A stretch of 61,337 bases of DNA from positions 1 to 61,337 of the forward strand of contig CAZLSH010000003.1 in assembly GCA_964562095.1 (NCBI GenBank), written 5' to 3'. This document shows positions 1,290 to 38,167 of this stretch, one piece after another; within the stretch, counting starts at the first letter, position 1, and the number at the start of each line of letters is the position of its first letter. The stretch is from an uncultured Clostridia bacterium (lineage in GTDB: Bacteria > Acidobacteriota > Aminicenantia > UBA2199). A model generated the notes under the pieces. The model searched no databases, was not told the DNA's origin, and saw only the letters and a program-made list of their open reading frames with translations. A program made the position numbers and the translations under genes.

Positions 1290-2678
1290 TTATAAATTAA
1301 AATACAACTCAAATTCCTTGGGATGCGGGATGCGCGCGATTTCCTCGATCTCGGCGCGCTTGATCTTCGACCACTGCCGGATCAGCGCATCGTCGAACAC
1401 GCCGCCGTATTTCAGGTAATCATTGTCCTTTTCCAGGCAATCCAGGGCTTCGGCCAGGTCGGCCGGAAGCAGCTTGACCTTGTTTTTGAATACTTTGGGG
1501 TCGGGAATGGCGCCGTCGAAGGGGCCGAAGTTGAATTTTTCCGGGGAAAGGTTCTTGAAGATGCCATCGATCCCCGCCAGCAGCATGGCCGATAGGAACA
1601 GGTAGGGGTTCGCGGAGGCATCGCCCGGGCGGTACTCGAGACGCGTCTCGCTTTCGTCCACGTAAGCCGGGATGCGAATGGCCGCGTTGCGGTTGGAGGT
1701 CGCGAAAATTGCGGAAACCGGCGCTTCGAAACCCCGGACCAGCCGCTTGTAGGAATTCGTCGAGGGATTGGACAGGGCGCTCAGCGAACCGGAGTGAAAG
1801 AGCAGCCCGGACAGGTAGTGCAGGCCGCTATCGGAAAAATTGCCGTAATTTCCTTTTTTGAGGAAAACATTCGTCGCCCGATTCATGATGAACTGGTGGA
1901 CGTGCCAGCCGTTTCCCGCCTTGCCGAAAATGGGCTTGGGCATGAAGGTCAGGAAAAGATCGTGCTTGCGGGCCAGGTTGAACAGGACATACTTGATGAT
2001 CACCGCTTGATCGGCCGTTTTGAGCAGGGGGTTGAATTTGGTCTCGATCTCGTGCTGGTTGACGGCCACCTCGTGGTGGTGATACTTGATCTCGATCCCC
2101 AGCTGCTGCAGGATGGCCACCGCCTCGTTCTTGAAGTCGACATGCTCATCCTCGGGAGAACCGGCATGATACTGGTTTCGCTTCGCTTCACTGTCCATCT
2201 TCAGGTAAAAGTAGCTGCCTTCCTCGCCCACCCCGAATTCAGCTTCCTTGAAAATGAAGAACTCGAATTCCGGACCGAACAGGGCGTGCGTGCCGATCTT
2301 GGATTTGACCAATGCCGCTTCCGTCTTGGCCGCCACGAAGCGCGGATCTTCGGGAAAACGGGTGCGCTCGCTGTCGGTCAGATGGATGTCCGCCATGAAA
2401 ACAGCCGTTTTCCTGGCCCGAAAAGGATCGATGAACAAGGTTTCCAGATCGGGGATCATCACCATGTCGCTTTTTTCAGGCTTGGCGAAACCGTACGAGG
2501 ATGCGTCGAACCCCACGCCGTTGCTGATCAGTTTTTCGTCCAGCATGACGGCGGGAAGGATGAGGGAATGCAATTTCCCCGTCAGGTCAAGCGTCTTCAG
2601 GTCGATGAACTCGACCTGCATTTCCTTCAATTTCCTTTGCGCGGCACCCAGCATGTTTTTGTCTTTCATTTCTGCCAT
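1290..2678 (-). CDS. glnA: Glutamine synthetase (type I-like)
   Basis: 462 aa with GS motifs FGPEFEFF, GNGWHVHQ, NPSTNSYKRLV and NRNAAIRIP. An alternative start at Met4 (2669) is possible. Confidence 0.93.
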   Translation of the reverse strand: MAEMKDKNMLGAAQRKLKEMQVEFIDLKTLDLTGKLHSLILPAVMLDEKLISNGVGFDASSYGFAKPEKSDMVMIPDLETLFIDPFRARKTAVFMADIHLTDSERTRFPEDPRFVAAKTEAALVKSKIGTHALFGPEFEFFIFKEAEFGVGEEGSYFYLKMDSEAKRNQYHAGSPEDEHVDFKNEAVAILQQLGIEIKYHHHEVAVNQHEIETKFNPLLKTADQAVIIKYVLFNLARKHDLFLTFMPKPIFGKAGNGWHVHQFIMNRATNVFLKKGNYGNFSDSGLHYLSGLLFHSGSLSALSNPSTNSYKRLVRGFEAPVSAIFATSNRNAAIRIPAYVDESETRLEYRPGDASANPYLFLSAMLLAGIDGIFKNLSPEKFNFGPFDGAIPDPKVFKNKVKLLPADLAEALDCLEKDNDYLKYGGVFDDALIRQWSKIKRAEIEEIARIPHPKEFELYFNL

Positions 2679-12145: not shown

Positions 12146-12244
12146 ATCCCGCTCCCTGCCCAGCCGCCTGCGGCCGGGCTTGGCATCTCCGGCTCAAGTT
12201 GACGCCATCCCGGTGGAATCGTATAATGCTGGCGCGAAACGATC

Positions 12245-13459
12245 ATGGTCATCGGCTTACATAAAAACAAGGTCGCGGCGATACTGAAGATCACCGAGGA
12301 TCTCAACCGCATCAAGGACATCGATTCGCTCCTGGACCGGGTCCTGCTGGAGGCCCGGCGATTCTCCCGCGCCGACGCCGGCTCGATCTACCTGCTGGAA
12401 AACCAGAAATTGCGCATCAATTACGTGCAGAACGACACCCTGATGCAAAAGGAAAGCGGCAAGAAATTCCTTTACCAAAACCATGAAATCCCCATCAACG
12501 ACAAGTCCATGGCCGGCTATGTGGCCATGACCCGCAAGCCGCTGATCATCGCCGATGCCTATGCCCTGAACGAAGCCGTGCCCTACGCCTTCAACCGTTC
12601 ATTCGACGAAACGGCGCGTTACCGCACGCGTTCGGTGCTGACCGTGCCCTTGATGGCCAGCCGGAACCGGCTGACCGGGGTCATGCAGATCATCAATTCC
12701 CTGGATAAGGCGGGAGCGGCGGTCCCGTTCCGCAGTGAAGACGAGCTGGTGGTGGCCTATTTCGCCAACCACGCGGCCGGCAGCATCGAAAAGGCAAAGA
12801 TGACCCGCGAGATCATTCTGCGCATGATCGGCATCGCCGAGCTGCGCGATCCCGAGGAAACCGGGGCCCACGTCAACCGCGTCGGAGCCTATTCGATCGA
12901 GATCTACTCCAAGTGGGCGGCGGATCACGGCGTGACGGAACCCGAGATCAAGCGCGTGCGGGACATCCTGCGCATCGCCGCCATGCTGCACGATGTGGGC
13001 AAGGTGGCGATTTCCGACACGCTGCTGAAAAAGCACGGCCCCCTTTCCCCCGCCGAGTACGAGCAGATGCAGCGCCACGTCATTCTGGGCGCGCGCCTGT
13101 TCAAGGATTCCACATCGGACTGGGACGACATGGCGGCCGAAATCGCCCTCAACCATCATGAGAAATGGGACGGCAGTGGCTACCCGGGCAAGGCGGTTGA
13201 CGTCAGCGCCGATGATTGGCGGCCGGGGCCGGGTAAAAAGGGCGAGGAGATTCCCCTGTTCGCCCGCATCGTCGCCCTCGCCGACGTGTTCGACGCCCTG
13301 TCCTCGCCGCGGGTCTACAAGGAGTGCTGGGGCGAGGAGAAAACGCTGGCCTACATCCGCGACCAGAAAGGCAGGCAATTCGACCCCGAACTGGTCGATG
13401 TGTTCTTTTCGATCTACGACGTCATCCGGGCCATCCGGGGAAAATATGGCGAGCACTGA
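12245..13459 (+). CDS. GAF domain-containing HD-GYP phosphodiesterase
   Basis: N-terminal GAF-like region (RADAGSIYLL...). HD-GYP catalytic motifs AAMLHDVGKVAI and HHEKWDGSGYPG. Confidence 0.85.
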   Translation: MVIGLHKNKVAAILKITEDLNRIKDIDSLLDRVLLEARRFSRADAGSIYLLENQKLRINYVQNDTLMQKESGKKFLYQNHEIPINDKSMAGYVAMTRKPLIIADAYALNEAVPYAFNRSFDETARYRTRSVLTVPLMASRNRLTGVMQIINSLDKAGAAVPFRSEDELVVAYFANHAAGSIEKAKMTREIILRMIGIAELRDPEETGAHVNRVGAYSIEIYSKWAADHGVTEPEIKRVRDILRIAAMLHDVGKVAISDTLLKKHGPLSPAEYEQMQRHVILGARLFKDSTSDWDDMAAEIALNHHEKWDGSGYPGKAVDVSADDWRPGPGKKGEEIPLFARIVALADVFDALSSPRVYKECWGEEKTLAYIRDQKGRQFDPELVDVFFSIYDVIRAIRGKYGEH

Positions 13460-16430
13460 GCTGCCGGCCATTGCCGACGGGCCGGCCGGCGCCGACCTGC
13501 CCCTGGAGCGCATCGGCCGCCTGGCTCCCTTCAAGGTGAAGCGGTTTCTGCTGGTCGCCAGCCGTTACGATTTTTTTATGCTGGAGGAGGACGGCCGGCT
13601 GCAGGACCTGCTGCTGCAGACCTACCAGCACTGGAACCGGGGCTACGTCCCGCAATTCCTGCGCGTCAGCGGCGGCGATAACGCGCTGGAGACCATCCGC
13701 CGCGAGCCGTTCGACCTGGTGGTGACGGTCATGCGCCTGGGCGACATGGACCCCTTTTCTTTCGCCCGCCAGGCCAAGGAGATCGTTCCCGGCCTGCCGG
13801 TGATCGGCCTGGCCTACAACACGCCCGAGCTGAAACGCCTGCTGGATATGGACGACGGCAGCGCCCTGGAGAGGATCTTCGTCTGGCAGGGAGACAGCCA
13901 GGTGCTGCTGGGCATCATCCAGTTCATCGAGGACCGCCGCAACGCCGCCGGAGACACGCGGCTGGCCGGCGTGCAGAACATCCTGTTGATCGAGGATTCC
14001 ATCGGTTTTTACTCCGCCTACCTGCCGCTCATTTTTTCCGTGCTGCGCGAGCTGACCCAGGGCCTGCTCAAGGAGGACCTTACCTTCACGCAACGGCTGC
14101 TGCGCCAGAACGCCCGGCCGCGCGTGCACCTGGCGGTGACCCATGAAGAAGCCGAAGCTGTTTTCGTGGAATTCCAGGACCACCTGCTGGGCATCATCAC
14201 CGATGCCAGCTTTCCCCGGGGGGGGATCGTCGATCCCCAGGCCGGGGTGCGCTTCGCAAAAAATGTACTGGCCGGCAAGCCCCATCTGCCCGTCCTGCTG
14301 CAATCAAGCGATGAAGGAGCGGAGATCATGGCCGGCGAGGCCGGCATCCCGTTCCTGTCGAAGAATTCACCGACGCTGCTGCGTGACCTGAAGCGATTCC
14401 TCTCCAGCCATTTCGGCTTTGGCGACCTGGTGCTGCCGGGCGCCGGGCCGGAAGCGGAGACGCGGTTCGCTACCCTGGATCAGTTGTTCTCGGCCTGCGG
14501 CGACCTGCCCGACGAGCCCTTGCGGCAGGCGCTCGCCAGCGGCGATCTGGGCCGCTGGCTGCGCGCCCGCACCGAATTCGCGCTGGCCGATTCCCTGCAG
14601 GGGGATTTTGCCGCCGGCCCGCAGCCGGGAACCCGCCTGAAACGGCTGATCGCCGCCGACCGCGCCGCCAGCCGCCGCGGCGCCATCGTCCCCTATTCAC
14701 GATCCTTCCATGAGGAGTATTCCCAGTTCAGCATCATCGGCTCGGGTTCCATCGGCGGCAAGGCCCGCGGGCTGGCCTTCATGGACCGCATCCTGGCCAG
14801 GCATTTCGATCGCGGGAAATATCCCGGGGTGACCATTTCCATCCCGCGCACGCTGGTGCTGGGGACCGACGTGTTCGCTGACTTCATGAAGGAGAACGAT
14901 CTGTTGCCGCAGGCCGTCCTCGACCACAGCGAGAGCCACATGGCCAACCTGTTCATCAAGGCCAGCCTGCCGGGAAAGATCGTCGGCGATCTGCGCGATT
15001 TCATCCAGAACGTCAAGGTGCCGCTGGCCGTGCGCTCTTCCAGCCTGCTCGAGGATTCCCTCTATCAGCCGTTCGCCGGCATCTATGCCACCAAGATGCT
15101 GCCCAATGACCAGGATAGCGACGACATCCGATTTTTGAACCTGGTCAACGCCATCAAGTTCGTCTATGCTTCGACGTTCTTCCGCCAGGCCAAGGCCTAT
15201 ATCGGCAGCACCCCCCACCGGGTGGAGGAAGAACGGATGGCCGTCGTCATCCAGCCCATCGTGGGCCGTTCCCACCCCGACTGCCTCTACCCCGATTTTT
15301 CCGGCGTGGCCCGCTCCTACAATTATTATCCCGTCGGCCTGGCCAAGCCCGAGGACGGCGTGGTCCATGTCGCCCTGGGGCTGGGAAAGACCGTCGTCGA
15401 TGGCGGCGTCTCCCTGCGCTTCACCCCGGCGTTCGCCGGCATCCTGCCGCAGTTCACTTCGATCAAAGAGATGTTCCAGTTCTCCCAGCGCGATTTCTAC
15501 GCCGTGGCCATGCGCCGCGTGGCTTCGATCGCCTTCCTGGAAGAGGACCAATATTTGGTCAAGTACGGATTGGACAAGGCGGAGAAGGACGGGGTCCTGG
15601 ATTACCTGGCGTCGACCTACTCGCGGGAAAACGACGCGGTCTATGACGGCATCGGTTCTCCCGGGCCGCGCATCGTCAATTTCGCCCATATCCTGAAGAA
15701 CGGCGTCTTCCCCCTGGCCGCCATCGTGGAAGACCTGATGCGGCTGAGCCATGAGGCGATGAACTGCGCCGTCGAGGCCGAGTTCGCCGTAACCCTCGCC
15801 GGCCCGGACGTTTACCCCGCCCATTTCAGCCTGCTGCAGGTGCGCCCGTTGGTCGTGCAGGATGAACTGGTCCAGGTGGAGCTGGACGAACGCCTGCGGA
15901 CCTCCGCTTTCTGCTTCAGCGACCGGGTCCTGGGCAACGGCGTCACCCGCGGATTGCGCGACATCGTGTTCGTCAAGCCCCAGGCATTCGCTGCCGCCAG
16001 CAGCCCGCAAATCGCCGGCGAGGTCGACCAACTCAACTCCCGGCTGCAGTCCGGGGAGATCCCCTATGTGTTGATCGGCCCCGGTCGCTGGGGCAGCACC
16101 GATCCCTGGCTGGGCATCCCGGTCAAGTGGAGCCAGATCAGCGGCGTAAAGATCGTGGTTGAGGTCAGCCTGCCCAACATGAACGTCGACCCCTCGCAAG
16201 GGTCGCACTTTTTCCAGAACATGACCTCGCTGCGCATCGGCTACTTCACGGTGCCCATGGCCCGCGAGCACGGTTTCATTGACTGGCCTTGGCTGCAAGG
16301 CCTGCCCGCCGCCTTCGAGACCGAGCACCTGAGGCATGTCCGCCTCGACGAGGCCCTGACGGTGATCATTGACGGCCGCAGGAGCCAGGGGGTCATCTTA
16401 AAGCCCGGAGCCGCGGCGGCCGCCGGTTGA
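13446..16430 (+). CDS. Receiver-modulated PEP/pyruvate-binding (PPDK_N ATP-grasp) domain protein; no swivel or PEP-utilising domains seen
   Basis: The ATG at 13446 (MASTELPAIA...) overlaps the HD-GYP gene by 14 nt. The 13158 start in the track would require a long overlap. Two receiver-like domains are followed by PPDK_N motifs GGKARGLAFM and LAVRSSSLLEDS. The C-terminal module reads GPGRWGS...GIPV...GSHFFQN. Confidence 0.8.
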   Translation: MASTELPAIADGPAGADLPLERIGRLAPFKVKRFLLVASRYDFFMLEEDGRLQDLLLQTYQHWNRGYVPQFLRVSGGDNALETIRREPFDLVVTVMRLGDMDPFSFARQAKEIVPGLPVIGLAYNTPELKRLLDMDDGSALERIFVWQGDSQVLLGIIQFIEDRRNAAGDTRLAGVQNILLIEDSIGFYSAYLPLIFSVLRELTQGLLKEDLTFTQRLLRQNARPRVHLAVTHEEAEAVFVEFQDHLLGIITDASFPRGGIVDPQAGVRFAKNVLAGKPHLPVLLQSSDEGAEIMAGEAGIPFLSKNSPTLLRDLKRFLSSHFGFGDLVLPGAGPEAETRFATLDQLFSACGDLPDEPLRQALASGDLGRWLRARTEFALADSLQGDFAAGPQPGTRLKRLIAADRAASRRGAIVPYSRSFHEEYSQFSIIGSGSIGGKARGLAFMDRILARHFDRGKYPGVTISIPRTLVLGTDVFADFMKENDLLPQAVLDHSESHMANLFIKASLPGKIVGDLRDFIQNVKVPLAVRSSSLLEDSLYQPFAGIYATKMLPNDQDSDDIRFLNLVNAIKFVYASTFFRQAKAYIGSTPHRVEEERMAVVIQPIVGRSHPDCLYPDFSGVARSYNYYPVGLAKPEDGVVHVALGLGKTVVDGGVSLRFTPAFAGILPQFTSIKEMFQFSQRDFYAVAMRRVASIAFLEEDQYLVKYGLDKAEKDGVLDYLASTYSRENDAVYDGIGSPGPRIVNFAHILKNGVFPLAAIVEDLMRLSHEAMNCAVEAEFAVTLAGPDVYPAHFSLLQVRPLVVQDELVQVELDERLRTSAFCFSDRVLGNGVTRGLRDIVFVKPQAFAAASSPQIAGEVDQLNSRLQSGEIPYVLIGPGRWGSTDPWLGIPVKWSQISGVKIVVEVSLPNMNVDPSQGSHFFQNMTSLRIGYFTVPMAREHGFIDWPWLQGLPAAFETEHLRHVRLDEALTVIIDGRRSQGVILKPGAAAAAG

Positions 16431-16431
16431 C

Positions 16432-17331
16432 ATGGCCGGAATGCCGGAAGACCGTCCTGATTCCTCCAGGCGGCCGTTTCTGTTTGCCAGCGATCTGCAT
16501 GGGTGCGAAGACCGGTATGACAAGCTTTTTGCGCTAGTGCTGAGCGAGCGCCCGGCAGCGGTTTTCCTGGGAGGAGACCTCCTGCCCTCGGGCGCGCTGC
16601 GCTTCGCCCGGAGCGCGCCCGGCGGGGAGGACTTTTTGGCCGGGTTCCTGTTGCCCCGCCTGAACTCGCTGCGCCGCGAACTGGGAGATGGCTACCCGCG
16701 CTTTTTCCTGATCCTGGGCAACGACGACCCGCGCAGCCAGGAAGCCGCTTTGATCCGCCGGGAAAAAGAGGGGCTGTGGCAGTATCTCCATGGCCGCAAG
16801 CTGTCGTTGGGGCCCTATGCCGTATACGGGTATGCCTGCGTGCCGCCCACTCCCTTCGCCCTCAAGGACTGGGAGCGGTACGATGTTTCGCGCTTCGTTG
16901 ATCCGGGCTGCGTTCCCCCCGAGGATGGACGGTTCAGTTGCGAGGTCGCCGCGGAGGACAAAGGCTTTCCCACCATCCAGCAGGATCTGGAAAAACTGGC
17001 CGGCAGCGACCGGCTGGAGAACGCGCTGTTCCTTTTCCATTCCCCGCCCTATCAAACCGCCCTTGATCGGGCGGCATTGGACGGGCGGCAGGTCGACGGG
17101 GCGCCGCTGGACGTGCATGTGGGCAGCATTGCCGTGCGCCGCTTCATCGAGGCGCGGCAGCCGCTGGTCACGATGCACGGCCATGTCCACGAATCGCCCC
17201 GCCTGACCGGTTACTGGCGGGAAACGATCGGCCGCAGCCACTGCTTCTCCGCGGCGCATGACGGCCCCGAGTTGGCGGTGGTGAGTTTCGACCCGGCGCA
17301 TCCGGCCGGGGCGATCCGGAAACTGCTGTAA
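16432..17331 (+). CDS. Calcineurin-like metallophosphoesterase
   Basis: Motifs SDLHG, GGDLLP, LGNDD, LFHSPP and HGHVHES. The start lies 1 nt after the preceding stop, suggesting translational coupling. Confidence 0.8.
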   Translation: MAGMPEDRPDSSRRPFLFASDLHGCEDRYDKLFALVLSERPAAVFLGGDLLPSGALRFARSAPGGEDFLAGFLLPRLNSLRRELGDGYPRFFLILGNDDPRSQEAALIRREKEGLWQYLHGRKLSLGPYAVYGYACVPPTPFALKDWERYDVSRFVDPGCVPPEDGRFSCEVAAEDKGFPTIQQDLEKLAGSDRLENALFLFHSPPYQTALDRAALDGRQVDGAPLDVHVGSIAVRRFIEARQPLVTMHGHVHESPRLTGYWRETIGRSHCFSAAHDGPELAVVSFDPAHPAGAIRKLL

Positions 17332-17451
17332 ACCGCAGCCAGGGGCCGAGGGCACGATTGAGTTCGCCGGCTTAGGGGATCATCTTGCCGCCGGCTCAAA
17401 GGTGCGCGTTCTTTTCCTGCGCCGCGGGTCTGGGAAACCGGGGGCGCGGGG

Positions 17452-20400
17452 TCAGTCGTTTTTCAAGGACAGCGGCCGCGCCGCGTCGGTGACCGCCCCG
17501 ATCTTCACCGCGTAACTGGTTTTGTTGGCGATATCCTCGTCGGTCAGCAGGTGGTAGTCGATCAGCCCATTGGTTTGGTGGCCGGTGCGCGAAAAGTTGA
17601 TTTCGGACAGGCACAGGCTCCAACCCTCCAGCCAGAGGCTGAGCTGCTGCTTCTGCTGGTCGCTGCCCTGGAAATGAATCAGCAGGTCGATGTCGCTGCC
17701 GGGGCCGGAGGTGGCATTCTTGGTGGAACCGAAGACGTACAGGGCCTTGACGCCGAAGCGCTTGCCGTCGAGCTGGCTGGCGATGCGCTCGGCCATGCGC
17801 AGCCGCCAGTGCCAGTGATCCTCGCTGGCGGTCTCTGAAGGCTCTTTCCTTTCCAGTGAATCGGCCGCGGCCGAGATCGGCGTGGCGATGAAGCCCAACG
17901 CCTCGCCCTGGTCGGCGTTCATCGCCACGCGCAGCACCTTGCCGCCGGTCACGTGGGGAACGTCGATGACGTGCACCGTGTCGGCCAAAGCGGAGGAATC
18001 CGGGAGAATCTCCGCCAGGTAGTTGCGCGACCCGAGCAGGAACTTCTCGTTGAACTCGATGCCCGGGTCGTCGGGATAGAGGGGCAGGTAGCGGATCGAC
18101 GATTCGACCAGGTCCTGGAAGAAATGGGTGCCGAAGGACAGCTCGGGCACGTAATTGCCCTTCTTGCGGGCGATCTCGATCAGGGCCGCCGTGTTGTTGA
18201 AGTCCGAGTAGGTGACCGGCACGCCGAGCTTGATGTCGCCGCGGCTGCCCCAGCGCCCTGGGCCCATGAGAATGAACTGCCGCTTGGGCAGCAGGCTGTT
18301 CAGCTTGCCCACGACCCGGCCCACTTCAAGCATCTTCTCGCTGCTTTCCAGCTGGCCGTATTTGTCCGGGTCGACATAGACAATGTGGGTGATGTCGGGC
18401 AGCTTGCCGTTGGAGATGTAGCGGTTGGCGGAGAAGATGATGCGTTCTTCGGCGATGTCCTTGGGGATGGGGGTGGAGACGTTGCCGGCGGTGGACGCCT
18501 GCGGCCGGCACTGCAGCAGGAAGAGCTGGCGGCCGTCATGGGCAAACTCGATGTCCACCGGCGTGTTCATCTTTTCCTGCAGGGTCTTGAGGATCATCTG
18601 CAGCTGCTTGATGAACGGCGTGCGCGTGATCAGCCCCTCGAAGGTGACGAACAGGTTCGTCTGGTCGAAGTCGAGATGAACGGCCGACGGCGGGTAAATG
18701 TGCTCATCCTCGTAAACGGAAACGATCTTCTCGATTCCCTTGTACTCATGGCCGCACTCGCGGAGCAGGCCGGGGATCTCCTTGGTTTCGAAAGTGCCGG
18801 TTTTCAGGTTGATGACGTCGATGCGCCGCGGCGAGTAGCGCATGGTCTCTTCGGCGGTGACATTGACGCGCAGGTTGGGAATGCCCGGGGAAATCAGGAT
18901 CGGGTAGTCGTCGCTGACCCGGTCCACGGCGCGGGTGCCCAGGCCGGGAACGAGACGGGCCAGCCCGTCCTCGCGCTTGATGCGCGAAGACCAGCGGAAC
19001 TCGTTGTGGCTGAAAGCGACGCCGGCGAAGGCGGGGAAAAAGTAATCCCCCACTCTCTGGCCGACGACCTCCTGGATCATGATGCCCATCTCTTCGTGAA
19101 AGTCGAGCAGTCCTCGCTCGGCGCGGTACTCGATGGGGTCGGGGCCGAAGATGGAGGCGTACACTTCGGCGATGGCGTCGGTGAGGGCGTCCAGCTTTTC
19201 CTGCTTGGTCCCGGTGTTGGCCAGGAACAGGCTTTTGTATTTCCCGGAGAACGCCGTGCCCATGCGGTCCTCCAGCAGGCTGGAGCTGCGCACGATCAGC
19301 GGCCTGTCGCCCAGGTCGTCGAGGGCCATGGACAGGCCCTTGATGATCTCGACCGGGAAGTGCGAGTTCTTCATCAGCTGGATCACGTTCTGGTATTCCA
19401 GGCGGATCTGGTCGATCTCCTTGTACTTCTGCTCGTTCACCTCCTCCAGGTTGTTGTAGCTGAGAAAGCTCATGATGGCGTCGGTGGTGATGTACCAGGT
19501 TTTGGGATATTTCAACTCGCCCAGGACCTCGGCATGCTCTCCCGGCTGGGCGAGGATCTTCTGGGCCAGGAACAGGCCGGCGCTCTTGCCGCCCAGGCGG
19601 CCGTAGCCATTGGCGGGATAGATGATCTTCTGCACCAGGTCGTAGAAATGGCGCACCTCGATGTGGTTTTTGGCGATGTTGATGAAGTCGAGGTGGTCGG
19701 AGAAAAAGCGGCGGATCAACGACACGCGCAGCCCCTTCTCCATGGGCGGAGACAGTTCGTAGCTGCCGCCGGAAATGTAGTGGTAATGGGTGATGGCGTT
19801 GATGACGTCGACCAGGGGCATGTCGATGTTGTTGATGGCCTTGCTCAGGAAGCCGGCCTTGTCCTCCTGGATCCATTTCTGGATGTTGCCCAGGATCTCC
19901 TTGTCGGTCAGGTAGCGGGCGGCGATGCGGAAGGTCTTGTCGCTGAGTTCCAGCAGCTCCAGTTGCGAGCGCCGCTGGCTGGGGCGGTTGATGTCGTCGC
20001 TGATCTCGGCCTGGGAGGCGCCCTGGTCCTTGCTCAGCGACTTCAGCAGCTCTTTGGCTTCGGCGACGCCGCTCCAGAACAGGTGATAGACCATCTTGCG
20101 GCTCAAGTGGATGTACAGGTTCTGGTCGGTGCGCCGCAGCAGATCGACGATCACCATCCACTCCTTTTTGTTCTTCTCGCTGAGGTCCTTCTGGGCGGTC
20201 TCCCATTCGCGGGAAACCTGCTCGAGCTTCAAGTGCAGGATGGTGCGGCCGATGCGCTCGGCGATGGTTTGCAGCAGTTTGTGCTCGTCCTTGAGGAAGT
20301 AGCTGCCCTCGGTCTGCGGCACCTCTTTCGAGTAGGATACTTCGATGCTGCCGGCCAACTTGTCGTCCACCCGGATCTCGGCGCACTGAACGCGCGGCGA

Positions 20401-20634
20401 TTCCTGGAACCCGGGACTCTGGTGGGTTTGATCGTCATAAATGATCCTGACCTGGCAGATCTCGGGGAACTGGTAGCCCGTGGGGATGGTCAGGATCAAT
20501 TGGGCGAAAATCTCCTCCAGGGGCAGATTGGTCCGGGTCAGGAGAGCTTCGACCTGGTAGAGGCAGTTCAACTCCTTGGCCCGTTCGCGCATGTCATTGA
20601 GCAGCCTGTCGATCGAGTTCTGCGTTTCGCCCAT
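17452..20634 (-). CDS. Sensor-domain / PPDK_N ATP-grasp / nucleotidyltransferase fusion protein
   Basis: 1060 aa. The N-terminal module carries RAKELNCLY. PPDK_N motifs are GGKSAGLFLA and LIVRSSSLLEDR. It shares the GPGRWGS...GVPV...GTHFFQD module with its paralog. The C-terminal Pol-beta-type NTase motif is FGSTKNATSGPGSDIDLLIHF. Confidence 0.8.
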   Translation of the reverse strand: MGETQNSIDRLLNDMRERAKELNCLYQVEALLTRTNLPLEEIFAQLILTIPTGYQFPEICQVRIIYDDQTHQSPGFQESPRVQCAEIRVDDKLAGSIEVSYSKEVPQTEGSYFLKDEHKLLQTIAERIGRTILHLKLEQVSREWETAQKDLSEKNKKEWMVIVDLLRRTDQNLYIHLSRKMVYHLFWSGVAEAKELLKSLSKDQGASQAEISDDINRPSQRRSQLELLELSDKTFRIAARYLTDKEILGNIQKWIQEDKAGFLSKAINNIDMPLVDVINAITHYHYISGGSYELSPPMEKGLRVSLIRRFFSDHLDFINIAKNHIEVRHFYDLVQKIIYPANGYGRLGGKSAGLFLAQKILAQPGEHAEVLGELKYPKTWYITTDAIMSFLSYNNLEEVNEQKYKEIDQIRLEYQNVIQLMKNSHFPVEIIKGLSMALDDLGDRPLIVRSSSLLEDRMGTAFSGKYKSLFLANTGTKQEKLDALTDAIAEVYASIFGPDPIEYRAERGLLDFHEEMGIMIQEVVGQRVGDYFFPAFAGVAFSHNEFRWSSRIKREDGLARLVPGLGTRAVDRVSDDYPILISPGIPNLRVNVTAEETMRYSPRRIDVINLKTGTFETKEIPGLLRECGHEYKGIEKIVSVYEDEHIYPPSAVHLDFDQTNLFVTFEGLITRTPFIKQLQMILKTLQEKMNTPVDIEFAHDGRQLFLLQCRPQASTAGNVSTPIPKDIAEERIIFSANRYISNGKLPDITHIVYVDPDKYGQLESSEKMLEVGRVVGKLNSLLPKRQFILMGPGRWGSRGDIKLGVPVTYSDFNNTAALIEIARKKGNYVPELSFGTHFFQDLVESSIRYLPLYPDDPGIEFNEKFLLGSRNYLAEILPDSSALADTVHVIDVPHVTGGKVLRVAMNADQGEALGFIATPISAAADSLERKEPSETASEDHWHWRLRMAERIASQLDGKRFGVKALYVFGSTKNATSGPGSDIDLLIHFQGSDQQKQQLSLWLEGWSLCLSEINFSRTGHQTNGLIDYHLLTDEDIANKTSYAVKIGAVTDAARPLSLKND

Positions 20635-20651: not shown

Positions 20652-20685
20652 AAAATAAAAAAGGGGGCGTCCCGCGGACGCCCCC
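20652..20685 (-). terminator. Rho-independent terminator downstream of gdhA
   Basis: On the minus strand: GGGGGCGTCC-gcg-GGACGCCCCC (10-bp GC stem, 20663-20685) followed by TTTTTTATTTT (20652-20662). It begins 17 nt after the gdhA stop. Confidence 0.75.
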
Positions 20686-20701
20686 TGGTGTTACTTCTCG
20701 A

Positions 20702-21988
20702 TTACACCCAGCCGCGCAGCTTGCAGGCCTGGGCGACGCGGTTGACGGCGATCATATACGCGGCGTCGCGCATGTAGACCTTTTTCTGCTTGGCCAGCCC
20801 GTAGACGGCGTGGAAGGCCGAGGTCATGATGTTGTCCAGCTTGCTCAAGACCTCTTCCTTGGTCCAGAAGTAGTTCATATTGCACTGGACCTGCTCGAAG
20901 TAGCTGCAGGTGACACCGCCGGCGTTGGCCAGGAAGTCGGGGATGACGAAGATGTTGCGTTTCTTGATCACCTCGTCGGCCTCGGGTGTGGTGGGGCCGT
21001 TGGCGCCCTCGGCGATGACCTTCACCTTGTCGGAGATCAGCTTGACGGTTTCGGCGTTGATCTGGTTCTCCAGGGCGGCCGGCACCAGGATGTCGGCATC
21101 CTGCTGGATCCAGGCCTGGGCGTCGGCTATTTCGTAGCCCAGTTCCTTGGCCTTAACCTTGTCGATGCCGCCGAACTTGTCGGTGATGCCCAGCAGCTGC
21201 TCCAGGTCGATGCCGCTCTTCTTGATGAACGTGTAGGACTTGCTCTCCTTCTGGTCCCAGCAGGAGACGCAGACGGCCTTGCCGCCGTACTCCTGGTAAA
21301 GCCGGACGGCGTACTGGGCCACGTTGCCGAAGCCCTGGAAGGCGGCGGTCGTTTTCTTGATGTCGATGCCCAGCTCGCGCAGCGCCTCGCGCAGGGTATA
21401 GATGACGCCGAAGCCCGTGGCCTCGGTGCGGCCCAGCGAGCCGCCCATGCCCACCGGCTTGCCGGTGATGAAGCCGGGGTACTTGGCGCCGGTCAGGCTC
21501 TCGTACTCGTCCATCATCCAGATCATGTGCTGGGCGTTGGTCATGACGTCGGGGGCCGGAACGTCCTGCAGCGGGCCGACGTTGCGCACGACCTGGCGCA
21601 CCCAGCCGCGGCAGATCTGCTCCTGTTCGCGCTGCGACAGGTTGTGCGGGTCGCAGATGACGCCGCCCTTGCCGCCGCCCAGCGGGATGTCGACGACCGC
21701 GCACTTCCAGGTCATCCAGGTGGCCAGGGCCTTGACGGTGTCGATGGTCTCCTGGGGGTGGAAGCGGATGCCGCCCTTGCAGGGGCCGCGGCCGTCGTTG
21801 TGCTGCACGCGGAAGCCCTGGAAGATCTTCACCGTGCCGTCGTCCATCTTGACGGGGATGGCGAAATGGAACTCGCGCAGCGGGTTGCGCAGCAGGTCGC
21901 GGGTGGCCGGATCCAGGTCCAGCTTCTCGGCGACGTTGTCGAACTGGGTTTGGGCCATTTTGAAAGCGTTGAAAGATTTATCAGCCAT
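20702..21988 (-). CDS. gdhA: Glutamate dehydrogenase (Glu/Leu/Phe/Val dehydrogenase family)
   Basis: 428 aa with KGGIRFHP, the PLGGGKGG catalytic-Lys region and the GFGNVA dinucleotide fold. Confidence 0.92.
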   Translation of the reverse strand: MADKSFNAFKMAQTQFDNVAEKLDLDPATRDLLRNPLREFHFAIPVKMDDGTVKIFQGFRVQHNDGRGPCKGGIRFHPQETIDTVKALATWMTWKCAVVDIPLGGGKGGVICDPHNLSQREQEQICRGWVRQVVRNVGPLQDVPAPDVMTNAQHMIWMMDEYESLTGAKYPGFITGKPVGMGGSLGRTEATGFGVIYTLREALRELGIDIKKTTAAFQGFGNVAQYAVRLYQEYGGKAVCVSCWDQKESKSYTFIKKSGIDLEQLLGITDKFGGIDKVKAKELGYEIADAQAWIQQDADILVPAALENQINAETVKLISDKVKVIAEGANGPTTPEADEVIKKRNIFVIPDFLANAGGVTCSYFEQVQCNMNYFWTKEEVLSKLDNIMTSAFHAVYGLAKQKKVYMRDAAYMIAVNRVAQACKLRGWV

Positions 21989-22025: not shown

Positions 22026-22055
22026 ATTGTATCATGTTTCCCGGCGATTTGTAAA
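22026..22055 (-). promoter_or_regulatory. Sigma-70-type promoter for gdhA (TTTACA-N18-TACAAT with extended TG)
   Basis: The minus strand reads TTTACAaatcgccgggaaacaTGaTACAAT. About 30 nt downstream come AAGGAGG and the ATG. Confidence 0.45.
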
Positions 22056-30940: not shown

Positions 30941-32308
30941 CTATGGCAGGAGCTGATATTTCTTGATCTTGGCCAGCAGGTTCACCCGGGAGATCCCCAG
31001 GAGTTTCGCGGCCTGGCTCTTGTTGCCCTGGGTGTGGGCCAGGGCCCTCTTGATGTGTTCTTTCTCCATCTCGATCAGAGAAAGCGGTGGCGCTCCGGCG
31101 CCGCTCATCTCGGGGGCGGGGGCGCTCTCCAGGAAATAATGGGGCAGGGAGCGCCTGTGCAGCTCGGGCTCCGATTCAATGATCACGGCGCTGTTGATGA
31201 TATTCATCAACTCACGCACGTTGCCCGGATAGTCGTAGCGGCACAGCAGGCGCATGGCCGCGTCCGAGATTTTCTGGATGGCCTTGCGGTTCTGTTCGTT
31301 GAAGAGCTTCAGGAAATGCTGGCAGAGGAGCGGCACGTCCTCGCGGCGCTCGCGCAATGGCGGCAGGTACACCGAGCTCATGTTCAGGCGGTAGAACAGG
31401 TCCTTGCGGAAGTTGCCTTTCTTCATTTCACTCAGCAAATCCTTGTTGGTCGCGGCGATGATGCGCACGTCGACTTTCTGATTCTTGGTTGATCCCAGGC
31501 GGAAGAATTCCCCCTCCTGCAGGACGCGCAGCAGCTTGACCTGGATGGGCAGCGCCAGCTCGCCGATCTCATCAAGGAACAAGGTGCCCCTGTCGGCCTC
31601 TTCGAGAAATCCCTTCTTGGCCGTGCCGGCCCCGGTAAACGCCCCCTTGTCATGGCCGAAGAATTCCGAGGCGAACAGCTCGTTGGCGAAGACCCCGGCG
31701 TTGACGGCGACGAAGCTTTTGTCGCGGCGGCGGCTGATGCGGTGAATGGCCTTGGCAATCAGCTCCTTGCCGGTGCCGCTTTCTCCCCAGATCAGGATGC
31801 TGTTGTCGGGCTGAGCCATTTTCTCGACCATTTGAAAGATGCGCAACATTTCCGGGTTCTGGGTGATGAAGCCCTGGAAGGCCTCGGGGAAGCGGAGCTG
31901 CTCGCGGGTCAGGGCGGCCGCGTCCGCCTGGGCGCTGCGGTCCTTGCGGCTTTCCAGCAGGGTGGCGATGATGGCCAGCAGCTGGTCGTTGTCTACCGGC
32001 TTGGTCAGGTAGTCGAAGGCCCCGAGCTTCATGGCCGAGACGGCCGTTTCGACGTCTTCAACACCCGTCAGCACGATCGTTTCGATCTCGATGCCGTTTT
32101 CCTTGATGAAGCGCAGGATATCCAGCCCGTTCACCTCGGGCATGTCCATATCCAGGAGCAGCAGTCCGTAGACGTTGCTCTGGAGCTTGGCGTAAGCCTG
32201 GCGGCTGTCGGCCAAGGTGGTAACCTCGTAGGTTCCCGTCTGCAGCAGCATGATGTGGAGGTAGTTCAGGACGGCCTGGTCGTCGTCGATGACGAGAATT
32301 CGCTTCAT
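30941..32308 (-). CDS. Sigma-54-dependent response regulator (NtrC family enhancer-binding protein)
   Basis: REC domain (LLLDMDMPEVNG). AAA+ sigma-54 interaction domain (GESGTGKE, ESEFFGH-type ASEFFGHDKGAFTGA). C-terminal HTH (QAAKLLGISRVNL). Confidence 0.93.
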   Translation of the reverse strand: MKRILVIDDDQAVLNYLHIMLLQTGTYEVTTLADSRQAYAKLQSNVYGLLLLDMDMPEVNGLDILRFIKENGIEIETIVLTGVEDVETAVSAMKLGAFDYLTKPVDNDQLLAIIATLLESRKDRSAQADAAALTREQLRFPEAFQGFITQNPEMLRIFQMVEKMAQPDNSILIWGESGTGKELIAKAIHRISRRRDKSFVAVNAGVFANELFASEFFGHDKGAFTGAGTAKKGFLEEADRGTLFLDEIGELALPIQVKLLRVLQEGEFFRLGSTKNQKVDVRIIAATNKDLLSEMKKGNFRKDLFYRLNMSSVYLPPLRERREDVPLLCQHFLKLFNEQNRKAIQKISDAAMRLLCRYDYPGNVRELMNIINSAVIIESEPELHRRSLPHYFLESAPAPEMSGAGAPPLSLIEMEKEHIKRALAHTQGNKSQAAKLLGISRVNLLAKIKKYQLLP

Positions 32309-34401
32309 GGCAGGTCCCTGGGCCCGACGGGGAGCCGGATGGAAAACGCCGTGCCCGCGTTCACCTCGCTTTCCACTTCGATCCGGCCGCGGTGTTCCTG
32401 GATGATGCCGTGGGCGATGGACAAGCCGAGCCCCGTTCCTCCCTCTTCGGGCTTGGTGGTGAAGAACGGCTCGAAGATGCGCCTCATGGTCTTTTCATCG
32501 ATCCCCTTGCCGTTGTCGCGAATGCGCAGGAGGTTCTCGTTCGCCTCCTTCAGATGGGCGGTACGGATCTCGATTGCGCCCATCTTGCCCTCCATCGCCT
32601 GGGCGGCGTTGATCAGCAGGTTGACCACCACCTGCTCCAGGCGCTGGAAATTGCCCTGGATGTGGGGCAGGCCCTCTTCGAGATCCAGGGTGATCTTCGC
32701 CTTGCGGCTGATCTGGTTGGCCACCAGGCGCAGGCAGTTGTGAACGATCTCGTTGAGGTCGACTTCCTCGTTCAGGGTGCCTTCGTCCTTTTTGGCGAAC
32801 CGCCGCAGCCCCTCGACGATGGCCTTGATGCGGTTGGCGCCCAGGGCCATGTCGTCCAGCAGAACCGGGATGTGGCTGCGGAAGACCTCATATTTCAGGC
32901 GGGCGATCTGCAGGTCGGGCTGCCGGCCGGCCTGTTGGTCCAGGATGGGCAGAATGTCCTTCACCGCCTCCTGGAGGATCGTCACGTTGCCGCGAATGAA
33001 TGTGTTGGGATTATTGATCTCGTGGGCGATGCCGGACACGAGCTGGCCCAACAGCGTCAGCTTGTCGGTCTGCATCAGCTGCAGCTCCATGTTTTTCTGC
33101 CGGGTGATCTGCCGGGAAAACTCCAGCACGCCGTCGACTTCCCCGTGCTCGTCGAAGATGGGGTAAGCCTGCAGCAGGTAATAATCGTCGCCGTACTTGC
33201 CCTCCAGGGTGACGGGTTTCTTCTGCTGGAGCACCATGGCCCCGGCGCAACGGGGACAGGGAGCGTCCAGCTGAAAAATCCGGGCATGGCACTTGCCGCC
33301 GCAGATCCCCTCTCCGCCGTTGGCCATGGTGATGCGGAAGGCGCGGTCGATCAGAATGACCCGGTCGCTGATGGCGTCGAACACCGTCTGTAGTTTGTTG
33401 TTGCTGTCATTCAGCTCCTCGGTCAGGGCCACGAGTTCGGCGTTCTTCTTGATCAGCAGGTTTTTCTGGTTTTCCAGGGAGGCCGTGCGCCGCTGGACGG
33501 TCTTCTCCAGGTTTTCGTTCTGCTCGATCAGCTTGCACTCCAGTTCCTTGCGCAGGCGGATGTCCTTGTACACTTCTTCGATGCAGCAGCGGCCGTCGAT
33601 GTCGACCAGGATGAACGAGCCGATGACGGGGCACTCCTTGCCCCGCGAGTCGATCAGGCTCATTTCCATGCCGCCGAGAAATCCGTGCCGCTTCAGCTTC
33701 TTGAAAACGTATGGGCGGATGCGTGGAATGTTGGCGTACAGCTTGTCCTTGACGAAATTCAATTTGACCGAGCCGTCCTCGGGATAATGCAGCATGCGGT
33801 AGAAGGCGCGGTTGGCTTTCAAGACGTCCCCGTTCATCTCCGAGATGACGATGCCGTCGGGGGCGTTTTCAAACAGGTCCTCGAAGCGCTTCTCTGATTT
33901 TTGCAGCTCCCTGCTCTGGGCTTTTACCCTCTCCTTCAGGTTGCCCACGTACTTGTTTAGCTCGAGCTGCATGTCGTGCTTCTCGACCGCCTTGGCGATC
34001 ATGCGGGCGACTTCGTGGATGAACTGGCCCTTCTCCTGGAGTGCTTCCCGGCCCTTGCGGTAGCTCACCCTGACGCAGCCCCGGCTGCGGCCGTTGACCA
34101 CGATGTCGGCCTGCAGGACCGAGCGGGGCTTCCTGGCCGGGGCCGCCTGCGCGGGGTATGTGGTCCGGTCGAGGACGATGGCGCCGCGGGCCAGGTCGGG
34201 GGCCAAGAAGCCCTTGACCAGGCTGGCCGCCGCGCTCGCCAGGATTTTCGGCAGGGTCTTGCCCGATTCGACCCGGGAACTGATGGCGTATAGGCACTCC
34301 AGTTCCTTGATCCGCTCCTGGAGGCTATGCCCGGGAGAGGTGGTGCCGTCCGCAGGGTTCATGGCCGGAGACCGAACCGTGAGGATTTTTTTGCCGCCCA
34401 T
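32305..34401 (-). CDS. Cytoplasmic multi-PAS sensor histidine kinase
   Basis: No transmembrane segment is evident. It has an N-terminal RIKELECLY module and PAS-like repeats. H-box SGIAHEINNPNTF, N-box LLINAAQAM, G1 IRDNGKGI and G2 GGTGLGLSI. It overlaps the NtrC-type gene by ATGA. Confidence 0.9.
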   Translation of the reverse strand: MGGKKILTVRSPAMNPADGTTSPGHSLQERIKELECLYAISSRVESGKTLPKILASAAASLVKGFLAPDLARGAIVLDRTTYPAQAAPARKPRSVLQADIVVNGRSRGCVRVSYRKGREALQEKGQFIHEVARMIAKAVEKHDMQLELNKYVGNLKERVKAQSRELQKSEKRFEDLFENAPDGIVISEMNGDVLKANRAFYRMLHYPEDGSVKLNFVKDKLYANIPRIRPYVFKKLKRHGFLGGMEMSLIDSRGKECPVIGSFILVDIDGRCCIEEVYKDIRLRKELECKLIEQNENLEKTVQRRTASLENQKNLLIKKNAELVALTEELNDSNNKLQTVFDAISDRVILIDRAFRITMANGGEGICGGKCHARIFQLDAPCPRCAGAMVLQQKKPVTLEGKYGDDYYLLQAYPIFDEHGEVDGVLEFSRQITRQKNMELQLMQTDKLTLLGQLVSGIAHEINNPNTFIRGNVTILQEAVKDILPILDQQAGRQPDLQIARLKYEVFRSHIPVLLDDMALGANRIKAIVEGLRRFAKKDEGTLNEEVDLNEIVHNCLRLVANQISRKAKITLDLEEGLPHIQGNFQRLEQVVVNLLINAAQAMEGKMGAIEIRTAHLKEANENLLRIRDNGKGIDEKTMRRIFEPFFTTKPEEGGTGLGLSIAHGIIQEHRGRIEVESEVNAGTAFSIRLPVGPRDLP

Positions 34402-37400: not shown

Positions 37401-38155
37401 ATCCAGCCGATCTCCTTGTCCAATTCGGCCTTGGGCAGGCGGTACTCGGGGATGCCGTAGCGCAGCATGCCGCCCAGATGGGGCGCCTTTTCGAACAGGC
37501 TGACGGCATAGCCCTTGAGGATCAGGTAATAGGCGCACGTCAGTCCGGCCGGACCTCCCCCGACGACCGCGATCTTTTTTCCGTTTGCGGCAGGAACAGG
37601 GGGAGTCCAGGGATCCTTGATGTCGATGTCGGTGGCGTAACGCTTCAGGTAGTCGATGCCCACGCGCTCGTCGACGCGGTTGCGGCGGCAGGCCACCTCG
37701 CACTCGCGCACGCAGACGCGGCCGCAGACCAGCGGCAGGGGGTTCGTCTGCTTGATCAAGCGCACCGCCTCGCGCGGTTTGCCGGCGGCGATGAGGGCGA
37801 TGTAACCCTGGACGTCGACTCCGGCCGGGCAGGTTTGCTGGCAGGGGGCTAGGCAGTCGGCATAATGGTTTGACAACAGCAATTCAAGGGCGGTCTTCCT
37901 GGCCGCGCGGATGCGGGGGTTATCGGTATGCACGACCATCTTGTCGGCCACCGGGCTGGAGCAGGAAGGGATCAGCTTTTTGATCCCTTCGACCTCCACC
38001 ACACAGAGATAGCAGGAGCCGTAGGGCGGCAGCTTGGGATCATGGCACAGGGTGGGAATCTCGGCGATGCGGTTCTGGCGAATCACCTCCAGAATGGTCT
38101 GGTCCGGGCGGGCGGTCACTTGTTTGCCGTCGATGGTGAGTGTGATGGGGTCCAT
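34406..38155 (-). CDS. Fusion oxidoreductase: [2Fe-2S] ferredoxin + GltD-like NAD(P)H/FAD module + 2x[4Fe-4S] + molybdopterin-oxidoreductase-like (apparently degenerate) domain
   Basis: 1249 aa. The N-terminal Cys pattern is CHDP..C..C..C. The GltD block carries CLAPCQQTCPAG, VCGRVCVRECEVAC, VVGGGPAGL and VVVGGGNTAID. Then come CIACGRCVRTC and CISCGNCIAACP, followed by CHFCSLGC...C. The molybdopterin-like region has no Cys or TGA at the expected active-site position. Confidence 0.85.
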   Translation of the reverse strand: MDPITLTIDGKQVTARPDQTILEVIRQNRIAEIPTLCHDPKLPPYGSCYLCVVEVEGIKKLIPSCSSPVADKMVVHTDNPRIRAARKTALELLLSNHYADCLAPCQQTCPAGVDVQGYIALIAAGKPREAVRLIKQTNPLPLVCGRVCVRECEVACRRNRVDERVGIDYLKRYATDIDIKDPWTPPVPAANGKKIAVVGGGPAGLTCAYYLILKGYAVSLFEKAPHLGGMLRYGIPEYRLPKAELDKEIGWITGLGVTVKTGTALGKDLSIADLKRQGFDAVYLAFGAQKAKGMRLPGEDETEGVLSGIDFLWQLQGDKKPEIFGSVVVVGGGNTAIDAARTAKRLGAGKVTLLYRRTRKEMPAHPMEIEAALEEGVELVELAAPIELTRENGRLEALTCIRMELGEPDASGRRSPVPKAGSEYRLPCDFVVSAIGQDVDLCGLEKDPLLKATRHHTLVYSESTFESSLPGVFTGGDMATGPAVAIDAIAHGKIAANAIDHFVRTGKAEGKRKEFISRKEAFGDIPDSDFVEFSKISKEKMPELPAAERARTFAEVELGFSRGQAHQESGRCLECGCSAYFDCDLRKLAVDFGVDIEKFVGEVRKYKVDKAHPFIALDPNKCIACGRCVRTCSEILQVSALGFVYRGFKSVVRPSMEKKLLETNCISCGNCIAACPTGAIAEKLPFVKPGPWAGTKHEAVCHFCSLGCVLSYKVFTPDLYAVAGSVDASHNKGYLCLEGRFGYRYLLDEKRLRQPLLKTSTGMRAATWEEALDQAAAGLHAVMAAHGPGAVAVCASPRLANEELYLLQKWARAGLKTNRIGSFSHLLNGRDLDALDEMFGLTVSTATMDDLREADVILAVNTDLTEKNLIAELKIKEAMKSGSRLLVVSSSETALSKIADLWLDPKRGANTILVAGLAHALIERQQIDRQFIDGRTEGFAAYRDSLAACDGPFVVARTGVQEEKFARAVDLLGRAERIVIVYGMDHVLEKSRDDLRALGGLLLQQGKAGRPGSGLILLRDHANSQGLLDMGVDSRSLPGSAHSDLASIERLAALWGVPLQRIFQPADVLALLKKGEIKALLVFGEDPLAAPHGGDLLAALDFKLVVDFFPTATAQEADVVLPLSSPLESGGTFTACDRRVQHSPPFVPPPSGWTNLEIIAGLAARAGTDLGPATIEGLAAEIALANPHYRGVASGGFWGDPLFQEHFATRSGKACFLPLTLDPAPCRQEAARLLSSDQYAQRLRGKTTP

Positions 38156-38167
38156 GGCTGCTTCCTT

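Follow-up and report, generated by a model that had tools for sequence, protein, structure and literature searches.

A dikinase-type ATP-grasp family with a new C-terminal domain forms a widespread, uncharacterised module with glutamate dehydrogenase

Four adjacent genes, here called A to D, occupy positions 12,245-20,634 of a 61,337-nt stretch of DNA from assembly GCA_964562095.1 (contig CAZLSH010000003.1), the whole of which is referred to below as the window. Gene A encodes a predicted GAF-domain HD-GYP phosphodiesterase and C a calcineurin-like metallophosphoesterase. B and D encode large proteins whose common core is an ATP-grasp domain, of the type found in phosphoenolpyruvate (PEP) synthase (PEPS) and pyruvate, phosphate dikinase (PPDK), followed by a C-terminal module (C-module). 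Directly upstream of D and on the same strand lies gdh, the gene for a hexameric-type glutamate dehydrogenase (GDH), with clpB beyond it (Table 1). We report here that this locus represents one form of a widespread GDH-centred module, so far uncharacterised, whose minimal conserved pair is GDH and a protein that joins the ATP-grasp domain to the C-module, and that this protein family probably controls or works with GDH.

A sequence-only reading of the DNA had described A to C as plus-strand genes facing a convergent 1060-aa paralogue of B on the minus strand, and the open reading frames lie as it proposed. B and D share 27% identity over 526 aa (E = 9e-36), in an alignment that spans the ATP-grasp domain and the GPGRWGS...HFFQ module; this module and the ATP-grasp motifs quoted earlier are all present in both proteins. 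The two gene junctions also read as described. A and B overlap by 14 nt (B ATG at 13446; A TGA at 13457-13459), an arrangement that is likely to couple their translation, and a 1-nt gap separates B from C (B TGA at 16428-16430; C ATG at 16432). The four genes are not chance open reading frames, because they include frames of ~1000 aa, match protein families strongly and have thousands of homologues. Pfam searches returned the families that had been expected (PF01326, PF01909, PF13487 and PF00149) and neither of the two whose absence had been predicted (PF00391 and PF02896).

The ATP-grasp core of both giants belongs to the PPDK_N family (PF01326; B, E = 3e-32; D, E = 2e-60). In D it aligns with residues 20-341 of Escherichia coli PpsA (hhalign probability 96, E = 1.6e-9) and carries intact GGK, VRSSSLLED, DIEFA and LQCRPQ motifs. 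More generally the motifs GGK, VRSS..ED, DIEFA and LQxRP line up with PpsA and are kept in both the B-type and the D-type subfamily. The remaining parts of a PEP synthase are missing. Searches of the whole B and D proteins with Pfam gave no match to the swivel domain (PF00391) or the PEP/pyruvate barrel (PF02896); B ends with the C-module and D with a nucleotidyltransferase. The absence of swivel and TIM barrel from both proteins, already noted from the translations, was thus upheld by Pfam and also by hhalign comparison with PpsA and PtsI and by Foldseek. NCBIfam equivalogs for PEPS and PPDK scored at most 57 bits against B and D, compared with cutoffs of ~600 bits or more. Instead, the nearest NCBIfam and Protein Data Bank (PDB) neighbours are non-pyruvate dikinases, with rifampin phosphotransferase (5HV1/5FBS) providing the closest structures. 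The public names of homologues, which come from JGI, are 'pyruvate, water dikinase' for D and 'CheY-like chemotaxis protein' for B, and both are probably wrong.

The C-module measures ~165 aa. Its invariant features in both subfamilies are GPGRWGS with an aspartate after it, LG, a glutamate, S-x-G-x-H-F-F-Q and a tyrosine; the histidine (H837 in D, H921 in B) and GPGRWGS are unchanged in 32 sequences taken from both subfamilies. An AlphaFold2 (AF2) model of D residues 735-935 (mean pLDDT 80) has an alpha/beta fold with a small beta subdomain and places the invariant histidine at the N-terminus of a helix. The phospho-histidine sites of HPr and PPDK are likewise found at a helix N-terminus. Structure prediction and Foldseek had been proposed as a route to identify the module, and this route led to no known fold, as nothing in the PDB matched the model at E <= 0.001 (best match CD38, E = 0.16). 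Pfam gave nothing at E <= 10 on 12 isolated module fragments. When the module profile was compared with E. coli PpsA and PtsI using hhalign, nothing was found at the swivel regions, although single-sequence templates limit the sensitivity of this comparison; swivel-domain proteins that could supply a better profile were sought in the window and in 91 loci, and none were found. By eye, the module segments 'SNG..I.HIVYVDP', 'GPGRW' and 'G-T-H + helix' resemble 'SPG..G.vrVi', 'DPGW' and 'T-S-H' of PEPS and rifampin phosphotransferase (RPH). We considered a divergent swivel domain on the strength of this likeness and rejected it, because Pfam, hhalign and Foldseek were all without a swivel match. 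The C-module is therefore a new domain that stands in the place of the swivel next to a dikinase ATP-grasp.

Searching 1.84 billion representative proteins (clustered at 50% identity) with the module profile identified 2,275 that carry it at E <= 1e-3. Judged by length and module position, the best 150 of these are B-like, D-like, fusions, or a form of ~580 aa that consists of ATP-grasp and module without receivers ('B-core'); many further matches are short fragments. In every architecture examined the module is accompanied by the PPDK_N ATP-grasp. A third, remoter family of ~555 aa combines an ATP-grasp-like N-terminus with a variant of the module (VPGRLGS ... GSHFLY or GTHFLTNL), and gave no Pfam match at all (examples at L036 5104-6762 (-) and L047 16409-18073 (-); L numbers denote the loci analysed).

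D has thousands of homologues across phyla at 52-61% identity, and a scan of one genome per species found relatives in at least 593 (593 of the 600 matched stretches listed). From these we took 80 loci of different species and more than 10 phyla (Acidobacteriota, Planctomycetota, Zixibacteria, Ignavibacteria/Bacteroidota, Calditrichota, Cloacimonadota, Spirochaetota, Bacillota, Myxococcota, Gemmatimonadota and others), translated all open reading frames and searched them with the window proteins. Enough flanking sequence was available upstream of D in 65 loci and downstream in 62; full flanks of 10 kb were present in 41, which for the count of HD-GYP genes are loci other than those of close relatives. 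Loci L017, L048 and L066 belong to metagenome-assembled genomes assigned to Melioribacter and Ignavibacterium. At 61 of the 65 loci a gene for GDH of the same clade as the window's enzyme (GDH1) is found directly upstream of D and co-oriented with it; counting either strand, D has such a gene as its neighbour in 63 (97%). Immediately upstream of D, 42 of the 65 encode a B-core protein, frequently with overlapping start and stop codons (by 4 nt in L018), and gaps of a few nucleotides give many of the GDH/module loci an operon-like packing. Shadow open reading frames apart, every other gene family in the flanks is limited to at most 13 of the 80 loci. Because nothing else recurs to this extent, the linkage to GDH is specific and does not reflect inherited synteny.

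The other genes of the cluster are less constant. A metallophosphoesterase gene is found within 3.5 kb downstream of D at 30 of 62 loci, convergent in 28 of them. B at full length, with its receivers, is encoded no more than 10 kb from D at 8 of 41. Nine of the 41 loci have a second, divergent GDH paralogue within 10 kb, and in six this paralogue and full-length B occur together. An HD-GYP gene like A was detected near D at a single locus (1/41), and otherwise in close Aminicenantes-type relatives only (L002, L003 and L087); A is thus a lineage-specific accessory of this Aminicenantes lineage. The sequence-only reading had treated the four genes as one module and overlooked GDH. Its neighbourhood test comes out in part, in that B-type proteins, C and D do co-occur, while A does not, and the unit that is conserved is not the four-gene module. 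Single genomes place other signalling genes beside the GDH-module pair, for example an FHA-domain protein after GDH (L084 12504-13025), a REC-GGDEF cyclase (L091 7817-8866) and a 7TMR-HD protein (L089/L090 13278-15287). None of these neighbours is conserved among the GDH-module loci.

The linkage was also recovered in the reverse direction. Three remoter B homologues, chosen blind to D and GDH, all adjoin GDH genes, and they pair with two classes of the enzyme, GDH1 (428 aa) and GDH2 (444-453 aa); at one of these loci (L086) B and another PPDK_N protein lie surrounded by three genes for GDH. A fourth homologue, 75% identical to B, repeats the arrangement of the window. Starting from GDH instead, four GDH1-clade homologues (77-80% identical) were chosen blind to D, and all four are followed on the same strand by a PPDK_N protein of 767-783 aa with a C-module (E ~1e-50). 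These proteins match D residues 153-920 (hhalign probability 100), from which it follows that D is a D-core (helical domain, ATP-grasp and module) to which a GAF-like domain and a nucleotidyltransferase have been attached. In some genomes B-core and D are fused into a single protein of ~1640 aa, which has both the ATP-grasp and the module twice. There are thus two paralogous subfamilies, D-type and B-type, which usually occur together, and the GAF-like, receiver and nucleotidyltransferase domains are add-ons to the core of ATP-grasp and module.

The GDH of the window matches Pfam ELFV_dehydrog_N and ELFV_dehydrog, and solved hexameric GDHs at E = 1e-126. Nearly all members of the GDH1 clade are 428 aa long; their mean identity is 72% (66 loci), with homologues 77-100% identical across phyla. 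Residues H115, C126, H154 and C361 are invariant in the clade, whereas the corresponding residues of Thermococcales GDHs are K, A, I and V. These four positions are candidate sites of regulation or modification.

The add-on domains include plausible sensors. Residues 1-150 of D, which had been put forward as an N-terminal sensor, are modelled by AF2 (pLDDT 80) as a GAF-like fold that leads into a helical region; the segment gave no GAF match in Pfam, and Foldseek aligned it with the GAF domains of NifA, Nlh1, CodY and sensor kinases at probability 1.0 (E 5e-3 to 1e-1, TM ~0.3-0.57). At four loci (L011 2683-4773, L026 5211-6533, L068 20578-22341 and L078 4501-6231), histidine kinases encoded no more than 10 kb from D have this domain (ERIKELTCLY...IPPGWQYP...DEGPFLKEE) at their N-terminus, which suggests that D and the neighbouring kinases may sense a common ligand. 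B had been proposed to carry tandem receiver-like domains, and two candidate receivers are present. The second gave no match in the window protein itself; a homologue with 55% identity (P0234) matches PF00072 at the same place (3e-11, in two stretches). Among the aligned family members, E183, D184 and K306 never vary and D253 and S287 almost never do; by eye, these residues correspond to the signature positions of a receiver. Receiver 1 has weak REC matches (E ~2e-3) and, judged by eye (LLVAS..., DLVVTV), seems to be without the acidic pair and the acceptor aspartate.

The remaining enzymatic domains have the intact motifs that had been ascribed to them. Residues 935-1031 of D match Polbeta (PF18765, 3e-7) and NTP_transf_2 (PF01909, 8e-7), and 13 orthologues all share the predicted active-site residues G969, S970, D981, D983 and D1026. 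With its GS...DxD site and profile matches to 2RFF and 1WOT, this C-terminal stretch of ~100 aa resembles the minimal nucleotidyltransferases of the MntA type (HEPN-MNT), from which D differs in that the domain is fused to a dikinase-like protein of 930 aa and has neither a HEPN partner nor a toxin-antitoxin or defence setting. C matches Metallophos (PF00149, 3e-8) and is 44-61% identical across phyla, with metal-site residues (D21-x-H23, G48-D49, GNDD 96-99, H203 and GHxH 250-253) that are invariant in 17 orthologues; a profile search of the PDB for its substrate class gave only hypothetical proteins (2YVT, YfcE). A contains GAF (PF01590, 2e-14) and HD_5 (PF13487, 4e-26) domains, and its translation carries the signature HHEKWDGSGYPG, of the HHExxDGxGYP type known from GAF-sensor HD-GYP phosphodiesterases of cyclic di-GMP. 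It appears to be an ordinary member of that family with a predicted activity, distinguished only by its overlap with B.

Table 1. Positions of genes, domains and putative signals in the window
Feature	Position	Strand	Basis
A, GAF + HD-GYP phosphodiesterase (predicted); 14-nt overlap with B	12245-13459	+	Pfam
B, 994 aa: pseudo-receiver, receiver, linker, PPDK_N ATP-grasp (435-814), C-module (826-994)	13446-16430	+	Pfam, alignments
B receiver-like domain 1 (~30-140)	13533-13865	+	Weak REC matches; by eye
B receiver-like domain 2 (~175-315)	13968-14390	+	Family alignment; PF00072 in homologue
B C-module: GPGRWGS (878-884), SQGSHFFQ with H921	15921-16427	+	Alignment
C, calcineurin-like metallophosphoesterase	16432-17331	+	Pfam, 17 orthologues
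D, 1060 aa: GAF-like, helical, PPDK_N ATP-grasp, C-module, minimal Pol-beta nucleotidyltransferase	17452-20634	-	Pfam, homologues
D 935-1060, minimal Pol-beta-type nucleotidyltransferase	17452-17832	-	Pfam, orthologues, profile
D 735-905, C-module, alpha/beta: GPGRWGS (791-797), SFGTHFFQ (H837)	17920-18432	-	Alignment, AF2
D 346-729, PEPS/PPDK-type ATP-grasp nucleotide-binding domain	18448-19599	-	PF01326, 2e-60; hhalign
D 158-338, helical domain, common to 780-aa D-core proteins	19621-20163	-	hhalign
D 1-150, GAF-like sensor domain	20185-20634	-	AF2, Foldseek
gdh, 428-aa hexameric-type GDH, GDH1 clade	20702-21988	-	Pfam, PDB match, linkage
Putative sigma-70-like promoter 5' of A: TTGACG-17-TATAAT, 11/12 matches	12199-12227	+	Consensus match only
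Putative sigma-70-like promoter 5' of gdh: TTTACA-18-TACAAT with TG	22026-22055	-	Consensus match only
Intrinsic-terminator-like hairpin between gdh stop and D start: 11-bp stem, 9 GC pairs, TTTTTATTTT	20652-20686	-	Sequence

The window lies at the chromosomal origin region. Upstream of the cluster are glnA, dnaA, dnaN, recF, gyrB, gyrA and tatD, and the dnaA-dnaN-recF-gyrBA surroundings are housekeeping. The glutamine synthetase gene (1290-2678, minus strand) lies just upstream of dnaA, such that it and the GDH module are ~10-20 kb apart and flank the dnaA-gyrA block on either side. On the other side of the cluster, a PAS histidine kinase and a sigma-54 response regulator form a pair (30941-34401, minus strand), which is a possible candidate for the missing kinase of the receiver of B. 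Next to it (34406-39934, minus strand) a 1249-aa protein fuses 2Fe-2S, GltD-like flavoprotein, 4Fe-4S and molybdopterin-oxidoreductase domains and adjoins a NuoF-like subunit; together they may form a bifurcating complex of the formate-dehydrogenase type. A 1760-aa homologue of bacterial alpha-2-macroglobulin, with MG2, bait-region, A2M and MG10 domains, is encoded at 55879-61161 (minus strand). Rfam families and tRNAs were sought in the window and none were found.

What might such a protein family do next to GDH? An intact ATP-grasp, the module histidine, the sensor domains, the pairing and fusion of the paralogues, the phosphoesterase and a near-obligate linkage to two classes of GDH lead us to favour, tentatively and as a possibility rather than a probability, a signal-gated, ATP-dependent phosphoryl transfer by way of the invariant histidine that would act as a covalent switch on GDH, or on one of its ligands, and be reversed by the phosphoesterase. 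The signal would reach the sensor domains as a metabolite bound by the GAF-like domain of D, or as aspartate phosphorylation of receiver 2 of B. The ATP-grasp domain would then split ATP in the manner of a dikinase and load a phosphoryl or pyrophosphoryl group on H837 (D) or H921 (B), and this group would be handed to GDH or its ligand, switching the interconversion of glutamate and 2-oxoglutarate according to nitrogen, carbon or energy status. The nucleotidyltransferase of the D type could add a second mark, of a nucleotidyl kind; the metallophosphoesterase would erase the mark, and in this lineage the HD-GYP protein might supply a cyclic-dinucleotide input. A more particular version, about which we are more doubtful, has the C-module as a phospho-histidine autokinase unrelated to the swivel, with heteromers of D and B, gated by GAF-like domain and receiver, switching GDH, the nucleotidyltransferase placing the second mark and the phosphoesterase acting as eraser.

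This scheme is like known systems in some respects only. PEPS and PPDK have a homologous N-terminal ATP-grasp, but two of their three defining features (swivel and barrel) are missing from B and D, which have instead a new alpha/beta module with its own histidine, N-terminal sensors and a linkage to GDH, not to gluconeogenesis. Rifampin phosphotransferase, PigC/RedH, glucan water dikinase and phenylphosphate synthase show how PPDK_N can be re-used for other acceptors through a histidine. Their likeness to B and D is limited to the ATP-grasp; rifampin phosphotransferase, PigC and phenylphosphate synthase keep the phospho-histidine domain of the PEPS type, and we know of no link between any of these dikinases and GDH. 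An analogy confined to how the system would work is that with GlnE acting on glutamine synthetase, AceK on isocitrate dehydrogenase and PDRP/PSRP on PPDK/PEPS, in each of which an ATP-dependent enzyme is dedicated to one central enzyme. E. coli ppsR, for example, adjoins its target ppsA. GlnE and D both contain a nucleotidyltransferase of the Pol-beta fold, without a sequence relationship beyond the generic fold, and otherwise the domain composition of all these regulators is entirely different from that of B and D, whose tie to GDH is one of genomic linkage alone. Literature searches for the family of ATP-grasp plus module, or for a link of GDH with a dikinase, nucleotidyltransferase or response regulator, found nothing, in keeping with the earlier statement that no characterised pathway of this composition was known.

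Several points weigh against covalent switching of GDH. Formation of phospho-histidine and modification of GDH are both hypothetical, and a metabolic role would account for the adjacency of the genes equally well. The C-module is a putative phospho-carrier by virtue of its conservation only; its fold matches nothing, and its two conserved loops are the lowest-confidence parts of the AF2 model. To our knowledge, the characterised PPDK_N enzymes all have a small molecule or a glucan as their substrate for phosphorylation, and none has a protein. Fusions of GDH with the module were sought among long module-bearing proteins and none were found, the additional sequence being a second ATP-grasp with module or a stretch without any Pfam match. 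Finally, the hairpin between gdh and D (20662-20686) is followed by a T-run and then by a G-rich ribosome-binding site before D. In the window gdh may therefore be transcribed mostly alone, with D fed by read-through or from a weak internal promoter (20751-20778), and a strong terminator at this position means that the two genes need not be co-expressed.

The main rival is that B and D are dikinases for a small molecule, a reading we consider unlikely but the most serious of the alternatives. They would phosphorylate a metabolite or cofactor of GDH (2-oxoglutarate or its enol form, glutamate, NAD(P)(H)), or run in reverse to make ATP, and so form a short pathway with GDH and not regulate it. 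The operon-like packing with a metabolic enzyme suits this idea, as does the precedent of the known PPDK_N enzymes (PEPS, PPDK, rifampin phosphotransferase, PigC, glucan water dikinase and phenylphosphate synthase), which act on non-protein substrates, and a GltD/NfnB-like Fe-S flavoprotein, related to the 1249-aa fusion of the window, accompanies the GDH module at 8 of 80 loci. However, fused receivers and GAF-like sensors are typical of signalling outputs, no substrate-binding domain is recognisable beyond the helical domain, and the pairing with two classes of GDH fits an action on GDH itself at least as well.

The sequence-only reading had instead pictured a nucleotide-derived messenger, made by the ATP-grasp and nucleotidyltransferase and degraded by the HD-GYP protein and the metallophosphoesterase, for which GDH would at most be a receptor. 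The intact catalytic residues of the nucleotidyltransferase, the two phosphoesterases in the window and the sensor domains are what this model would need, and GDHs of other organisms are regulated by nucleotides. We nevertheless regard it as improbable. HD-GYP genes are confined to close relatives, the metallophosphoesterase to about half of the loci, and a diffusible messenger would leave the near-constant adjacency to one enzyme gene unexplained. Moreover, B, B-core and the 780-aa D-core forms are without a nucleotidyltransferase and keep the GDH linkage, so that a product with two hydrolases cannot be the general logic of the family.

A role as non-enzymatic sensors or as self-contained signalling proteins is, in our view, also quite improbable, slightly more so than the messenger. 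Here B and D would sense energy charge through ATP and AMP, or act as histidine autokinases that feed the receiver of B itself, and would bind GDH as allosteric partners, for which the regulation of Thermus GDH by AMP through a protein partner is a precedent. The receiver of B has residues of the acceptor type, yet no cognate histidine kinase is encoded in the cluster, and the pairing and fusion of paralogues suggest a heterodimer able to act in trans. Against this, receiver-less forms have fully kept the catalytic residues of the ATP-grasp and the histidine, and the presence of a phosphoesterase as a conserved partner implies that there is a product or a covalent mark to act on. That B and D are ordinary PEPS or PPDK paralogues serving gluconeogenesis, as their PF01326 matches and JGI names would have it, is refuted by the domain tests (both downstream domains absent, equivalog scores far below cutoff, a module unlike the swivel) and has a negligible likelihood. 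A role in anti-phage defence was also discarded, as PADLOC gave only generic HD or minimal-nucleotidyltransferase matches, and none for B and GDH.

Looking at the wider biology, GDH controls the passage between amino-acid carbon and ammonium. For the bacterial enzyme we know of no covalent regulator dedicated to it in the way that GlnE is to glutamine synthetase, and none came up in literature searches. A conserved pair of sensor-equipped, ATP-using enzymes attached to gdh in more than 590 species-level genomes is a candidate for such control. If GDH proves to be modified, the system would represent a regulatory type of its own, in which the carbon-nitrogen hub is under a hitherto unknown form of post-translational control, much as GlnE acts on glutamine synthetase. 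It would operate in hundreds of mostly uncultured species of the Acidobacteriota, Planctomycetota, FCB group, Spirochaetota, Bacillota and Myxococcota. The lineages with the module (Aminicenantes, Zixibacteria, Ignavibacteria, Calditrichota, Planctomycetota and others) are dominant in anoxic sediments, with protein and amino acids as their growth substrates. The current names of the family, probably wrong, are likely to inflate the capacity for PEP synthase and gluconeogenesis that is inferred in metabolic reconstructions from metagenome-assembled genomes.

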